Shown one piece after another: positions 14,093-17,946 of a DNA stretch of 64,000 nucleotides; within the stretch, counting starts at the first letter, position 1, and every line of letters begins with the position of its first letter. The notes under the pieces are model-generated. The model ran no database searches. It saw nothing but the letters and a program-made list of their open reading frames with translations, and was not told where the DNA came from. Origin of the DNA: a virus; UHGV virus genome UHGV-1430915. One strand, given 5' to 3'. A program made the position numbers and the translations under genes.

Positions 14093-14647
14093 TTACTCCC
14101 CGCTGTCAATAGCAAGACTCATTGCAATACGGTATGCCTCTTCTAATGGTAAGAGTCTCCCCCACACATCCCAACCGACATCAAACTGCCTGCCAAACAA
14201 CTGCTGTGTGGTTCCGTGAGCATGACCGAACAGTTGGACTGATCCGTGAGGCTTTCTGTTCCACTTTGCAAACTGGTAATGGCTCATACAGATCAAATTC
14301 TTGTTGTGGCGAAGCTCGTAATAATCTACAACCTCATGACCGAACTCTTTCATAATTCTGACAGTCGTCCTTGTGTCATGGTTACCACGAACAAGAATAA
14401 TATGTCCGTTCAACATATTTAGAACATCTGGAAGCAATTTGTTGATATTCTTATCATTAGTGCACGCAATATCCCCCAAGTGAAACACAGTGTCTGCAGG
14501 TGACACAACAGAGTTCCACTTGGTGATGATTCCCGCATTCATACTGTCAAGATTGTGATCATACTGAGATCTGTGTTTTTGACATGAGTCGAACTCCATT
14601 ACCCGCTGGTGGAGAAAGTGTGTGTCGCTTGTTACAAAGTATTTCAT
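14093..14647 (-). CDS. metallophosphoesterase (calcineurin-like phosphatase), putative RNA 3'-phosphatase
   Basis: motifs VTSDTHF, HLGDI, GNHD, GHAHG; start set at ATG 14647 with GAGGA RBS (track ORF starts at 14752). Confidence 0.7.
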   Translation of the reverse strand: MKYFVTSDTHFLHQRVMEFDSCQKHRSQYDHNLDSMNAGIITKWNSVVSPADTVFHLGDIACTNDKNINKLLPDVLNMLNGHIILVRGNHDTRTTVRIMKEFGHEVVDYYELRHNKNLICMSHYQFAKWNRKPHGSVQLFGHAHGTTQQLFGRQFDVGWDVWGRLLPLEEAYRIAMSLAIDSGE

Positions 14648-14654
14648 ACATTCC

Positions 14655-15065
14655 TCATTTAAGTTTAATGCAGTTTTTAAGCTGGCGTTCCATACGATCC
14701 ACAACCCTGTCTGGAACATCATGAATGCTTTTATTACCATGGCGGTTTTCAACCACGATCACGGTATAACTATATCCATGACTGATCGCCATGTCAATAT
14801 ATTCTTGCACATATTTTTCTTTTGTAAACGTATTACTTACCACGATACGGTCGTAGCCCATACGCATCATATCTTCTACGTTATCTTTGCACCATTTTGC
14901 TGCAAGTGTTACTTTACTTGCATCCCAATTGTAATTGCCGTCATCGTCGTACCAGAACATATCGTTCTCAAAATGTGGATACAGACCTTCTAAAGATAGC
15001 GCATTTGCCAGTGTTGATTTGCCAGACCCTGGTAGACCACGCACGATATATAGCATTTTAGACAT
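14655..15065 (-). CDS. P-loop polynucleotide 5'-kinase-like protein (T4 Pnk kinase-domain-like)
   Basis: Walker A VRGLPGSGKST right after start; start set at ATG 15065 with GGAGAG RBS; 7 nt upstream of phosphoesterase gene. Confidence 0.65.
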   Translation of the reverse strand: MSKMLYIVRGLPGSGKSTLANALSLEGLYPHFENDMFWYDDDGNYNWDASKVTLAAKWCKDNVEDMMRMGYDRIVVSNTFTKEKYVQEYIDMAISHGYSYTVIVVENRHGNKSIHDVPDRVVDRMERQLKNCIKLK

Positions 15066-15093
15066 AGTAACTCTCCGTTTTAATTTTAATGAT

Positions 15094-15122
15094 AGTATAC
15101 CTAACTGTTTTGTTAATTTCAA
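15094..15122 (-). promoter_or_regulatory. sigma70-like promoter for kinase-phosphatase operon
   Basis: minus strand TTGAAA-17 nt-TATACT in divergent intergenic region. Confidence 0.55.
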
Positions 15123-15165
15123 GTGTTGACACCAAGTTATTTGTGTGGCAGGATAAAGGGACAAA

Positions 15166-16101
15166 ATGACAAATGAGGAATGTATAATGAAGTATTTTAA
15201 TGCAGACGACCTAGTTGACAAAGGTCTTGTAACCAGCAGATATTACCCGGATCTTGGGTTAAAGATCTATAAATATGCCAGAAAAGTATTCTACAACAAT
15301 TTATGGCATTTGTCTCCTCGTTTGCTGGAGTGCCGAGGCATTGTTGTCGGTAATGAAGGAAATGTTGTGGCATGGCCCTTCACAAAAGTGTTTAACTTGG
15401 GAGAAAATTCCACCAACCTGCCTGACAATAAACTTGTGACGGCGGTAGAGAAAAAGAACGGATTCCTTGGTGTGGTATCATCTCATAAAGGTGAACTATT
15501 GTTCTCAACAACCGGGTCTCTTGATTCTCCATATTGTAACCTTGCAAAGGAAACAATCCAGGAGCAATGTGGTAATTTAGATCTTATCAAGAGGGTTATG
15601 GGCCATGAAAACATGACATTCATGTTTGAAATTTGTCACCCTTCAGATCCGCATATTGTTCAGGAAGATCATGGCGCATATTTGATAGGTTGCAGATATA
15701 ATGATTCTGGAATAATGCTACCAGAAGCAGCTTTAGATGGGATTGCCAAATACCTTGGTGCAAAACGTCCTCACACTGTGCGTGAAATTCCGTTCAGCTA
15801 TGCAAAAGAATTAGCTGCAGAAACAAGAGGTGAAGGGTATATGATTCGTAAGCCTTACTACCCTTATGATCTGCAGCTGAAGATCAAGTCTCCATACTAT
15901 TTGGCACGGAAGGCCGTAATGAGGGGTAAAGCTTGGAAGATTTGGGATGATGATATCTTTAAACGTGTTGACGAAGAGTTTTATGGCATGGTAAACTTCA
16001 TTCGTAGCAATTACACAGAAGATGTGTGGAACTGCCTCCTGGAGCAAGAACGTCGTGAGATACTTGACTGCTATTTCCACAACGAGGACTATATGCAATG
16101 A
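15166..16101 (+). CDS. nucleotidyltransferase-family ligase, putative RNA ligase
   Basis: motif I EKKNGFLG (KxNG), motif IV EGYMIRKP, motif V LKIKSPYY; divergent from kinase/phosphatase pair; alternative start 15187 with GAGGA RBS. Confidence 0.5.
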   Translation: MTNEECIMKYFNADDLVDKGLVTSRYYPDLGLKIYKYARKVFYNNLWHLSPRLLECRGIVVGNEGNVVAWPFTKVFNLGENSTNLPDNKLVTAVEKKNGFLGVVSSHKGELLFSTTGSLDSPYCNLAKETIQEQCGNLDLIKRVMGHENMTFMFEICHPSDPHIVQEDHGAYLIGCRYNDSGIMLPEAALDGIAKYLGAKRPHTVREIPFSYAKELAAETRGEGYMIRKPYYPYDLQLKIKSPYYLARKAVMRGKAWKIWDDDIFKRVDEEFYGMVNFIRSNYTEDVWNCLLEQERREILDCYFHNEDYMQ

Positions 16102-16448
16102 AGAAGTTGATTGTGTGGCTGGATGACTTGAGAGATCCGTCAAATTATGGGCTCCCAGATGCTCTTTGGCTAAAGAATTCCTCTGAGTTTATGGATTTTA
16201 TTAACGATAAGGGAAAGCTCTACAGGCGCGTTTCTGAGTGGCACATGGACAACGATCTTGGAGAGGTATTTGAAGGGTACGATTGCCTATCTATGTTGGA
16301 GGAAAAATTTGTATTTGGTAAGCCTCCTGTAGTTGACAACGTGAAGATTTTCGTGCATACTTCTAACCCATCAGCGGCTCGTAAATTCATGATTGCTGCT
16401 GACTCGTTTAAAAAGTTTGGAATAGAGATTAAACAAAACATCTACTGA
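16098..16448 (+). CDS. hypothetical protein
   Basis: 116-aa ORF overlapping ligase stop; no recognisable motif. Confidence 0.5.
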   Translation: MKKLIVWLDDLRDPSNYGLPDALWLKNSSEFMDFINDKGKLYRRVSEWHMDNDLGEVFEGYDCLSMLEEKFVFGKPPVVDNVKIFVHTSNPSAARKFMIAADSFKKFGIEIKQNIY

Positions 16449-16456
16449 GGACACTT

Positions 16457-17218
16457 ATGCGACGACTGATCATTATCTCCGGTGCTGGTTTGAGCGCTGA
16501 ATCTGGTATCCCCACTTTCCGATCTGGTGGCACTGCAATGTGGGAGAATTTCAGCATCGATGAGGTGTGTAACATCCACACCTTTGCCAAGAACTACTAT
16601 AAGGTGCATGACTTTTACAATGCACGGCGTGTAGCTCTGGGCAGTGTTGATCCTAACCTTGCACATCTCCGGATCGCTGAGTGGTATTCACGCTGGTCTG
16701 GTCGTGTGATCAACCTGACAACCAATGTAGATGATTTGCTGGAGCGTGCTGGTGTAAAACATGAAGATATTTTACATGTCCACGGATATTTGCCAGAAAT
16801 AGTCTACGAGGATGATGAAGGGAGTAACGTCATTAAAGACATTGGATACTCTGAGGTAGACGCAAGCAAGTATACTTGGGTTAAGCCTAATGTAGTGTTT
16901 TTCGGAGAAGTAGCTCCAAAGTATACAGACATGTATGACCTGTTGACTTCTCTGACGAGCAATGATATGGTTATCCTTGTAGGGTGCTCCAACACAGTTA
17001 TCAATTTTAACTGGGAGCTATTCCCTGCCTGTAATAAGGGAACCAAACTGCTGATCGTTAACAAATACGACTCACAGCATTTAGGGGAGAATGGCATTTC
17101 ACGTAGTGACATTTACCAGTATGAGGATCGCGGCATCCCAGTTTGGTTTAACGGGGCGGTTGACGCTTTCTCTGATAAAACATTTATTGACATCGTAGAA
17201 AACTTTATGGAACTGTAA
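16457..17218 (+). CDS. Sir2-family protein (NAD-dependent deacylase / ADP-ribosyltransferase-like) lacking zinc ribbon
   Basis: motifs GAGLSAESGIPTFR, TTNVDDL, catalytic HVHG, PNVVFFGE; no CxxC...CxxC pair. Confidence 0.75.
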   Translation: MRRLIIISGAGLSAESGIPTFRSGGTAMWENFSIDEVCNIHTFAKNYYKVHDFYNARRVALGSVDPNLAHLRIAEWYSRWSGRVINLTTNVDDLLERAGVKHEDILHVHGYLPEIVYEDDEGSNVIKDIGYSEVDASKYTWVKPNVVFFGEVAPKYTDMYDLLTSLTSNDMVILVGCSNTVINFNWELFPACNKGTKLLIVNKYDSQHLGENGISRSDIYQYEDRGIPVWFNGAVDAFSDKTFIDIVENFMEL

Positions 17219-17232
17219 GCGGAGGCCTTTTA

Positions 17233-17946
17233 ATGCTGAATACTAAACTGATCGACAACCTGGAAAAACTGTCTCAGCCTGAAAACTACCTTTGGTCTGC
17301 CAACTGGGTGGAAAATTGGAACCGTGTAGCAGCTAAAGTGAAAAAATCATACACACCATTCGAACTTCAGCTGAGTTTCATTGAGGAAGAGTTCAATGAA
17401 GTTTTGGAAGAGTTGGAGAAAGGTGATGGTGGGGATCATCTCCTAAAAGAGGCCTGCGATCTTCACGTTGTCACAAGTTATGCCGCTTATCTTGTTAACG
17501 ATAACCATGAAAAGTGGTCAAACCTGTTTGATAATCCGCGAGGTCTTAAGTTTAAGATCGGTGAATTTTATGATACACTGATCGCTGCGAAAAATACCTC
17601 TAAGCAAAGAGCGTCCGCTTACCGCTTAGCAGAGCTGTCAACGGCTTTACTGTTCCAGCTTCGCGGTGATGTGTGCGGGATGATGCGGAAGGTTCTAAAA
17701 TCTAATGACAGCAAGTTTGCACGTGTCAACCATCTGCGGCATTCACACGGTGCCAGTGCAGATATGCCTGCTGAACAACTCATCGAGTTGGAGATTAAAG
17801 ATCTTGAGCGACGCTTTGATGGTCGCTATGAAGGTTTTGTTGCTAAAGAAGAATTCTACAACGGAAATAAAGTTATCATATTCCTCGACAGTAAAGGTAA
17901 GATTATGAAGCCTTCAAGCTTCAAGGATGTAACAGAATATATTTAA
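17233..17946 (+). CDS. MazG-like nucleoside triphosphate pyrophosphohydrolase domain protein
   Basis: EExxE...D signature IEEEFNEVLEELEKGD...EACDLH. Confidence 0.45.
   Translation: MLNTKLIDNLEKLSQPENYLWSANWVENWNRVAAKVKKSYTPFELQLSFIEEEFNEVLEELEKGDGGDHLLKEACDLHVVTSYAAYLVNDNHEKWSNLFDNPRGLKFKIGEFYDTLIAAKNTSKQRASAYRLAELSTALLFQLRGDVCGMMRKVLKSNDSKFARVNHLRHSHGASADMPAEQLIELEIKDLERRFDGRYEGFVAKEEFYNGNKVIIFLDSKGKIMKPSSFKDVTEYI

Follow-up and report, generated by a model that had tools for sequence, protein, structure and literature searches.

Defences that cleave tRNA are common in enterobacteria—PrrC, RloC, retron- and PARIS-type effectors, Cas13, and HEPN toxins among them—and, to our knowledge, the only counter-measure to have been characterised is that of T4, in which polynucleotide kinase (Pnk) and RNA ligase 1 (Rnl1) counter the anticodon nuclease PrrC. 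Bacterial Pnkp/Hen1 systems (C. thermocellum Pnkp, hereafter CthPnkp, and Capnocytophaga Pnkp1-Rnl-Hen1) likewise combine a kinase, a binuclear metallophosphoesterase (MPE), and a ligase, and fungi and plants employ Trl1 and Tpt1, with a split version in Mucorales comprising a stand-alone ligase, kinase, and Tpt1. Among phages, a function in RNA repair has been predicted for a sirtuin-centred type 2 neighbourhood whose prototypes are Escherichia phage V5 and Proteus phage Mydo (Iyer, Burroughs, Anantharaman & Aravind 2022, Viruses 14:1977, PMC9503650, section 3.7.3). Here we analyse the same neighbourhood in a 64,000-nucleotide stretch of the virus genome UHGV-1430915 (the window), where six genes within 3.9 kb (positions 14093–17946) encode a kinase, an MPE, an RNA ligase, a cREC domain protein, a Sir2 sirtuin, and a MazG-like protein. 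In our assessment this region is probably a phage RNA break-repair (heal-and-seal) system made up of two divergent transcription units, with a core that probably consists of the kinase, the MPE, and the Rnl1-type ligase.

The locus shares with the published type 2 neighbourhood both its lineage and all six components (T4-like tRNA ligase, cREC, kinase, sirtuin, MazG pyrophosphatase, and calcineurin-like phosphoesterase), and there is no difference in gene content; what differs is emphasis, in that the MPE is here part of the core, not merely “occasional,” and the sirtuin and MazG-like protein are lineage-restricted. The source phage is a Vequintavirus (rV5/FV3 group, E. coli phages): its 3.85-kb cassette region is 99.4% identical to that of Escherichia phage NHEP1, 122 phage records of the same group match it at 90% identity or more, and the genes are annotated in 118 phage records with at least 80% coverage of the region. 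These annotations read, variously, phosphoesterase; ATPase or “3'-phosphatase 5'-polynucleotide kinase”; RNA ligase 1; hypothetical protein; Sir2; and nucleotide pyrophosphohydrolase. Since GenBank carries annotations for the genes and a computational prediction of the neighbourhood appeared in 2022, the finding is already known and, as a sequence finding, the cassette adds little; added here is quantitative evidence for kinase, MPE, and ligase as a conserved core and for a lineage-restricted link to the sirtuin. The cassette is real and its arrangement is not due to chance, because it is annotated in those 118 records and because kinase, MPE, and ligase are found linked again in environmental phages that are unrelated. 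A function in tail fibre attachment, suggested by GenBank names copied from T4 gp63, found no support.

The first core gene (14655–15065, minus strand) encodes a 136-aa stand-alone P-loop protein that, judged by its sequence and model, is a candidate polynucleotide 5'-OH kinase with predicted activity on RNA. It matched AAA_33 (2.7e-10) and phrog_505, “polynucleotide kinase” (3e-10), and is one of a very large family whose members are ~130 aa long and stand alone; among the 120 homologues listed, none has a fused MPE or ligase domain. Its P-loop, GLPGSGKST, has the Walker A form GxxGxGK[ST]; G10, G15, K16, T18, and D35 are invariant in an alignment of 52 homologues, D35 aligning with the first Asp of “NRDDFR” in Pnkp1, and both S77-N78-T79 and the ENRHG lid motif are invariant or nearly so. 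Single-sequence searches with the kinase or the ligase gave no useful PDB match, and profiles were required: the kinase family profile matched RazKIN best (9D8A, 1.7e-6), followed by Pnkp1 (4.6e-5) and T4 Pnk (6e-5). The AlphaFold (AF2) model (predicted local distance difference test, pLDDT, 91) gave a concordant picture in Foldseek, with the CthPnkp kinase domain on top (query TM-score, TMq, 0.74–0.77) and T4 Pnk close behind (0.72–0.75), then PSTK, mammalian PNKP, and Pnkp1, and with gluconate, shikimate, and NMP kinases at 0.47–0.60. RazKIN phosphorylates RNA 5'-OH ends as a stand-alone member of the split tRNA-splicing machinery of Mucorales, and in its family the Asp equivalent to D35 is essential (MciKIN Asp36; PMC11571804).

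The second core gene (14093–14647, minus strand) encodes an MPE of 184 aa, for which we predict a role in healing RNA 3' ends as a 2',3'-cyclic phosphodiesterase and/or a 2'/3'-phosphomonoesterase. It scored past the curated cut-offs of Metallophos_2 (1.7e-6) and Metallophos (4.1e-6) and matched phrog_547 at 5e-51; the motifs picked out by eye in a preliminary description of the window are present (SDTH, LGD, GNHD, and GHAH), and all five metal-binding motifs are invariant in the family alignment (A3). Against the PDB, the family profile matched Aquifex aq_1665 (1XM7, 2.4e-16), then GpdQ, YfcE, and MJ0936; at E ≤ 0.1 it matched neither a lambda-phosphatase nor the phosphatase of Pnkp, and LGD and GNHD occur instead of the lambda-phosphatase-type GDxxDRG/GNHE. 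By these sequence features, the protein is aq_1665/YfcE-like and not lambda-phosphatase-like. Direct phmmer comparison with MPEs that abut kinases in environmental phages gave 1e-11 to 1e-24, which argues that they and the window MPE form one specific subfamily.

The third core protein, 311 aa long (15166–16101, plus strand), is by sequence and model a short ATP-dependent RNA ligase of the Rnl1/Trl1 type and the predicted sealing enzyme. PF09511 (RNA_lig_T4_1) was matched at 1.1e-14 and 55.3 bits against a gathering cut-off of 28.3, and 57 homologues from a family of ~300-aa proteins hold R57, K74, F76, K96/N98/G99, E155, E223/G224, and K239/K241 invariant. The ligase profile (A2) matched T4 Rnl1 (2C5U) at 5e-13, aligning with T4 motifs ECRG, the K/F of PxxKxFN (EKFFN), motif I KxxG (KEDG), FE, EG (EGYV), and KIKS; motifs I (KxxG), IV (EG), and V (KxK) are all present in the window protein, together with the Arg and the Lys/Phe that are specific to Rnl1 and precede motif I. 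In the window these motifs read KKNG, EGYMIRK, and LKIK, so that two of the three motifs first reported for the protein (KxNG and LKIK) stand and the third, “EGxxxK,” was one residue off. The AF2 model (pLDDT 91.6) returned C. glabrata Trl1-LIG, T4 Rnl1, and fungal Trl1-LIG as its top Foldseek matches, lying about as near to the ligase domains of fungal Trl1 as to T4 Rnl1, with DNA ligases far lower. A score of only 39 bits against the T4 RnlA equivalog TIGR02308 (cut-off 242) indicates that it is not an RnlA orthologue.

Taken component by component, the locus resembles each of the known systems in part. With T4 it shares the heal-and-seal logic, the kinase fold, P-loop, and catalytic Asp, and the Pfam family of the ligase with its Rnl1 motifs. 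However, in T4 the kinase carries its 3'-phosphatase as a fused HAD domain, whereas here a separate MPE is found; the ~120-aa C-terminal tRNA-specificity domain of T4 Rnl1 compares with only ~65 aa past motif V in the window ligase (four short helices, about half of T4's length); and T4 has no cREC, Sir2, or MazG partners. The preliminary description had seen in the three genes a bacterial Pnkp arrangement split into pieces, and the healing and sealing set itself is borne out, since profile and fold searches point to a polynucleotide kinase and not to a deoxynucleoside monophosphate (dNMP) or other small-molecule kinase, and to an Rnl1/Trl1 RNA ligase and not to a DNA ligase; a dNMP kinase (~27365–27967) and an ATP-dependent DNA ligase (18575–19858) are encoded separately elsewhere in the same phage. 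As a statement of homology the Pnkp comparison fails. Pnkp is one polypeptide and the window has three genes on two strands; its phosphatase is lambda-phosphatase-like, unlike the aq_1665/GpdQ/YfcE/MJ0936-like MPE with its GNHD; and its ligase, which needs Hen1, is of another clade than the Rnl1/Trl1-type ligase here. A Hen1-like gene is annotated neither in positions 1–40000 of the window (NHEP1 record) nor in ~16 kb around the FV3 cassette, as read from annotation and not from a dedicated Hen1 profile search. The interpretation was partly supported, its core idea being right in function and wrong only as descent from Pnkp, to which the likeness is one of analogy. To the fungal and plant systems the resemblance lies in the ligase, whose model is best matched by a Trl1 ligase domain, in the kinase, whose profile is best matched by a Mucorales enzyme, and in the splitting of activities into separate proteins that it shares with Mucorales; both may also have a step dependent on nicotinamide adenine dinucleotide (NAD+). 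On the other hand, the cyclic phosphodiesterase of Trl1 is a 2H enzyme, for which the candidates here are cREC and the MPE, and the Tpt1/KptA 2'-phosphotransferase is of ART fold, whereas the only NAD+ enzyme of the cassette is a sirtuin for which such an activity is a proposal only.

The genes are organised as two divergent units, with kinase and MPE on the minus strand and ligase, cREC, Sir2, and MazG-like genes on the plus strand. Between the two units lies a divergent intergenic control region (15066–15165), recognised from consensus promoter and ribosome-binding site (RBS) matches only: a promoter-like TTGAAA-17-TATACT sits just upstream of the kinase on the minus strand (15122–15094), and RBSs precede both first genes, that of the kinase being GGAG. 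Only 7 nt separate kinase and MPE, and the RBS of the MPE (GAGGAA) lies over the kinase stop. On the plus strand, the start of cREC overlaps the ligase stop by 4 nt (ATGA), so the two are translationally coupled, and gaps of 8 nt and 14 nt follow between cREC and Sir2 and between Sir2 and the MazG-like gene; an intrinsic-terminator-like hairpin (17953–17971, plus strand), with an 8-bp stem including 6 GC pairs and then a T-rich tail, stands 7 nt past the MazG stop. Sir2 and the MazG-like gene had first been noted as neighbours of the repair genes, and the adjacency is correct as far as it goes; given the overlap, the short gaps, and the shared terminator, however, they are operon partners of the ligase, together with a cREC gene (16098–16448) that had been overlooked. 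The other five genes lie where they were originally placed, and open reading frame and family searches agree with their assignments, weakly so for the MazG-like one. Regarding gene starts, the NHEP1 annotation begins Sir2 at 16538, which loses the GAGxS NAD-binding motif, and the MPE at 14740, which overlaps the kinase gene; the FV3 starts (16457 and 14647) agree with RBSs and motifs.

To gauge how far this arrangement extends, we scanned IMG/VR with the kinase profile and retrieved 80 loci, or 49 non-redundant ones after clustering of the kinases at 80% identity, in which neighbours within 8 kb were annotated by iterative hidden Markov model searches seeded with the window proteins. An MPE was found in 30 of these 49 loci (within 1.5 kb of the kinase in 26 and within 150 bp in 14) and an RNA ligase in 26 (Rnl1-type in 16, PF09414-type in 14, both types in 4), with the two together in 22. 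Every MPE and every ligase lay on the strand of the kinase, and seven ligases were within 150 bp of it; such adjacency counts (14 MPEs and 7 ligases) were never reached in 5000 random placements. Gene order itself was fluid, 13 distinct orders with MPE and/or ligase being observed. We take this recurrent same-strand linkage to mean that kinase, MPE, and ligase are a conserved heal-and-seal core, within which kinase and MPE are a conserved two-gene module—in distant kinase homologues, for example, a 217-aa MPE gene overlaps the kinase stop and a PF09414 RNA ligase lies 2 kb off. The Streptomyces phage Mandalore offers an instructive variation, with a T4-type Pnk (kinase fused to a HAD_PNKP phosphatase) beside an Rnl1 ligase and cREC; this non-orthologous displacement suggests that the MPE occupies the functional slot of the 3'-phosphatase. 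Accessory genes were far rarer in the survey: cREC in 7 of the 49 loci, PRPP synthetase (PRS) in 6, NAMPT in 3, and Sir2 and MazG in 1 each.

These counts also bear on whether the kinase might instead act on nucleosides or nucleotides, for instance as a nicotinamide riboside kinase, and so serve NAD+ salvage. In Pakpunavirus, and likewise in several loci from IMG/VR or Logan, it is immediately followed by PRPP synthetase and NAMPT, the protein was named a “nucleotide kinase” by Iyer et al. (PMC9503650), and its profile matched nicotinamide riboside kinase 1 weakly (E 0.011–0.018). Polynucleotide kinases, however, matched 100 to 10,000 times better and lead the fold search, the kinase abuts an MPE or RNA ligase far more often than PRS or NAMPT, and the window has the kinase but no NAD+ salvage genes. 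With polynucleotide kinases dominating both kinds of search, we reject this extremely improbable reading. A block with a different tie to NAD+ metabolism was observed in Pseudomonas Pakpunavirus PaSz-1_45_92k (5182–14834), where a DNA ligase, MPE, Rnl1, kinase, PRPP synthetase, NAMPT, and Macro gene occur together and the sirtuin, cREC, and MazG are lacking; this conserved block is shared by loci L015, L016, L078, and L084, linking the triad to NAD+ salvage and Macro genes in another manner than the window does.

On this basis, the most probable function of the cassette is repair of RNA, most plausibly tRNA, cut to 2',3'-cyclic phosphate and 5'-OH ends, and we infer substrates, order of steps, and a division of labour between MPE and cREC as follows. 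A metal-independent host ribonuclease—an anticodon nuclease or a HEPN-type abortive-infection RNase—would cut tRNA or another RNA to leave these ends; the 136-aa kinase would phosphorylate the 5'-OH; the co-translated MPE, possibly after ring opening by cREC, would strip off the phosphate, whether 2',3'-cyclic or linear, and so leave a 3'-OH; and the short Rnl1-family ligase would then seal 3'-OH to 5'-phosphate with ATP. Several observations weigh against this proposal. Kinases of the PNK type act on DNA as well. The Arg three residues past the catalytic Asp, which in T4 Pnk (R38) and CthPnkp (R41) contacts the acceptor phosphate and is also present in Pnkp1 (DDFR), is absent across the phage kinase family—the window kinase has D35-M-F-W38 (consensus DMFF) and thus no equivalent of T4 R38—and, going by the alignment, the invariant R9 just ahead of the P-loop might stand in for it. 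The window MPE, which ends ...AIDSGE (14093–14110), has lost a C-terminal DHH motif that no less than 90% of the kinase-associated family retains. In 15 of the 49 kinase loci, no MPE and no recognised RNA ligase occurred within 8 kb, and the opposite strands of the kinase–MPE pair and the ligase in the window are unlike all 56 surveyed MPE or ligase cases. Finally, the genome encodes an ATP-dependent DNA ligase 0.6 kb downstream of the operon, and literature searches, including papers on Vequintavirinae, BASEL, and retrons, returned no biochemical or genetic test of any of the six proteins.

That DNA ligase raises the question of whether kinase and MPE might heal DNA ends (5'-OH and 3'-phosphate) on its behalf, as a PNKP-like accessory of DNA repair or replication. 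A DNA ligase is also near the block in Vequintavirinae and Pakpunavirus relatives, and T4 Pnk, mammalian PNKP, and MciKIN phosphorylate DNA too (PMC11571804). The MPE likewise has a match to the ligase-associated PdeM family, but a weak one (E 2.4e-4; 20.6 bits, far under the cut-off of 150). In the survey, however, a DNA ligase was present in just 4 of the 49 kinase loci compared with 26 for RNA ligases, and the abutting partner was always of an RNA-ligase family. We therefore consider action on DNA ends very improbable and retain RNA repair as the probable function of the core.

Turning to the accessory genes, cREC (16098–16448, plus strand, 116 aa) was identified by PF20274 (cREC_REC; 4.8e-14, 53.2 bits against a cut-off of 27) and is predicted to process cyclic phosphates without metal. 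Its acidic pocket is kept, with D9, D10, D51, and D53, along with R12, H87, and N90, invariant in 14 diverse phage homologues. The domain was defined in a 2021 jumbo-phage paper as a predicted cyclic-phosphate-processing receiver domain (PMC7824862; PMC9503650), and its authors state that the family is experimentally uncharacterised (PMC9503650). The only PDB match of the profile, a designed coiled coil, was discarded as spurious. In Proteus phage Privateer (4488–8339), cREC shares a gene run with an RtcB-type ligase, an ATPase, and a band-7 protein, its position being ~2.5 kb downstream of RtcB. RtcB joins 3'-phosphate or 2',3'-cyclic phosphate ends to 5'-OH ends, so the cREC product must suit two opposite ligation chemistries, or else cREC has a target other than an RNA end.

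The sirtuin (16457–17218, plus strand, 253 aa) matched PF02146 at 1.1e-26 (94.3 bits, cut-off 24) and is class III-like, with SIRT5 and CobB both at 5e-21. When aligned to SIRT5, its NAD-binding and catalytic motifs are intact—GAGLS (GAGxS), TTNVD (TxNxD), and HVHG—and the FGE loop is kept. It lacks the four-Cys zinc ribbon, as the preliminary description had noticed: no Cys occurs between the catalytic HG and the FGE loop, where a Cys-free segment of ~30 aa is found instead, and the same is true of its clade, in which 109 of the 110 homologues with a locatable segment have 0–1 Cys there. Homologue searches recovered its own clade only, with no fusions. The last gene (17233–17946, plus strand) encodes a 237-aa candidate all-alpha nucleoside triphosphate (NTP) pyrophosphohydrolase of MazG type with an extra C-terminal region. 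This assignment is weak: phrog_671 (“nucleotide pyrophosphohydrolase”) was matched at 1e-21, while the Pfam PRA-PH match (E 0.083, 13.8 bits) fell below its cut-off of 21.3, a four-sequence profile matched HisE (1YVW) only marginally (E 0.08, over the EExxE...ExxD motif), and a single-sequence PDB search gave no match. The metal-binding motif EExxE...[ED]xxD is nevertheless present, and E52, E53, E56, and D76 are invariant in the four-sequence alignment.

As accessories transcribed along with the ligase, cREC, Sir2, and the MazG-like protein most likely handle alternative end chemistries (2'-phosphate) or nucleotide or ADP-ribose by-products; the role of Sir2 is uncertain, between the proposed KptA-like RNA 2'-phosphotransferase and an unrelated NAD+-dependent activity. 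Sir2 was found inside the cassette in Vequintavirinae (FV3, KpS8, a Seunavirus, and one IMG/VR contig), and it co-occurs with cREC, Rnl1, and Pnk in Mandalore and with Nudix and cREC genes in jumbo phage SE_PL. It stands alone in T5-like phages (58% identity), Vibrio phage K566, two metagenomic phages, and one Phapecoctavirus (nothing within 20 kb), and two further Phapecoctavirus genomes place it 31 kb from the ligase–MPE pair. Record counts by host genus diverge, with 289 Salmonella-phage records for Sir2 versus 19 for the cassette-type ligase, fewer than 9 versus 178 for Pseudomonas phages, and 14 versus 127 for Streptomyces phages. Sir2 and MazG are thus mostly uncoupled from the ligase elsewhere, and the sirtuin link is lineage-restricted.

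These patterns can be set against the route put forward by Iyer et al. (PMC9503650), an NAD+-dependent scheme like that of Trl1/Tpt1 in which the sirtuin, proposed to act like KptA, removes RNA 2'-phosphates. In it, cREC would open the 2',3'-cyclic phosphate to a 2'-phosphate and 3'-OH, the kinase would make the 5'-phosphate, the Rnl1/Trl1-like ligase would seal, the sirtuin would act on the resulting 2'-phosphate, and MPE and MazG-like protein would degrade the ADP-ribose cyclic-phosphate by-product. The published proposal finds support in the terminator-bounded operon that Sir2 and MazG share with ligase and cREC, in a ligase model as near to the 2'-PO4-dependent fungal Trl1-LIG as to T4 Rnl1, and in a sirtuin that, clade-wide, keeps NAD-binding and catalytic residues and lacks the zinc module used in peptide-substrate binding. 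Its components meet again in the distant Mandalore (cREC, Rnl1, kinase, and Sir2), and in several relatives PRPP synthetase, NAMPT, and Macro genes flank the ligase–kinase block. On the contrary, Sir2 and MazG each accompany the kinase in a single surveyed locus and cREC in seven; members of the same Sir2 clade (46–58% identity) lack a ligase, kinase, cREC, or MPE within 6–20 kb in the T5-like, Phapecoctavirus, K566, and metagenomic phages named above; Sir2 and the ligase–MPE pair are 31 kb apart in Phapecoctavirus; the host counts (Salmonella, Pseudomonas) are discordant; and the sirtuin retains its peptide-binding FGE loop. Moreover, an MPE alone could heal the 3' end fully, as in CthPnkp, and we know of no sirtuin that acts on RNA 2'-phosphate. 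We accordingly regard the scheme as unlikely, and as slightly less likely still its boldest form, in which the phage sirtuin would be an RNA 2'-phosphotransferase and cREC a new metal-independent 2',3'-cyclic phosphodiesterase, giving a fungal-type, NAD+-consuming “2'-phosphate” tRNA repair independent of 2H and Tpt1 enzymes. If true, a 2'-phosphate route would explain the NAD+ salvage and Macro genes beside the cassette in relatives. The window itself contains no NAMPT, PRPP synthetase, Nudix, or Macro gene anywhere, and for this reason we reject an NAD+ reconstitution island in this phage; the counter-defence against NAD depletion that was initially suggested is likewise not supported for it.

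Alternatively, RNA repair would fall only to kinase, MPE, ligase, and perhaps cREC, with Sir2 and the MazG-like protein serving host takeover or anti-defence in unrelated ways and merely sharing an early “auxiliary gene” operon; Sir2 could then be a protein deacylase, an ADP-ribosyltransferase, or an NAD+ consumer, and MazG a hydrolase of alarmones or non-canonical NTPs. That Sir2 is largely uncoupled from the ligase outside Vequintavirinae fits such a view, as does the fact that its nearest characterised relatives, SIRT5 and CobB, are class III protein deacylases, and the genes around the cassette are a mix of nucleotide and DNA metabolism functions. Less easily accommodated are the tight packing of both genes into one transcription unit with ligase and cREC and the recurrence of Sir2 with Rnl1, cREC, and Pnk in Streptomyces phages and with Nudix and cREC in SE_PL. 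We judge an unrelated role for the two proteins to be a serious possibility, short of an even chance, and it is compatible with heal-and-seal repair by the core.

Therapy and biocontrol make use of rV5/FV3-type phages, which are experimentally accessible in E. coli. The cassette is a ready system for asking whether the kinase–MPE pair, which many environmental phages have, is a general RNA end-healing module, whether cREC is an enzyme, and whether a sirtuin can act on RNA.

As to the wider context of the cassette, a cluster of seven tRNA or tRNA-like genes, as noted in the preliminary description, lies at 10346–11157 (minus strand), the distance to the MPE being 2.9 kb and that to the ligase ~4 kb; ARAGORN reports seven and Rfam six at gathering score. 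One member, a 97-nt tRNA-like gene at 10592–10688 (minus strand; Rfam tRNA, 35.5 bits), has no annotation in either FV3 or NHEP1. In the Infernal alignment its anticodon position is occupied by UUU (Lys) and its variable region has a 26-nt insertion, and ARAGORN gives a 4-base anticodon, “atcc.” As tRNA-Lys(UUU) is the classical PrrC target, a variant tRNA-Lys(UUU)-like copy near a repair cassette may deserve attention. Another, at 10787–10877 (minus strand), is tRNA-Ser(UGA) according to ARAGORN and falls under the Rfam tRNA gathering score, its best match being the tRNA-Sec model (41.5 bits, below the cut-off of 47).

Two peculiarities of database records were also observed. At least 18 and up to 25 “Campylobacter phage” records (host C. 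jejuni; for example, MG065646.1, MG065676.1, and MG065689.1) are 90–97% identical to the E. coli Vequintavirus cassette; some of them are unannotated or partial (one of 59 kb), and their stated host is doubtful. Salmonella phage GE_vB_MG (MG969411.1, 7844–19527) carries the whole cassette with each gene in 2–5 open reading frame fragments, and these broken genes are probably sequencing frameshifts, the record being marked UNVERIFIED.

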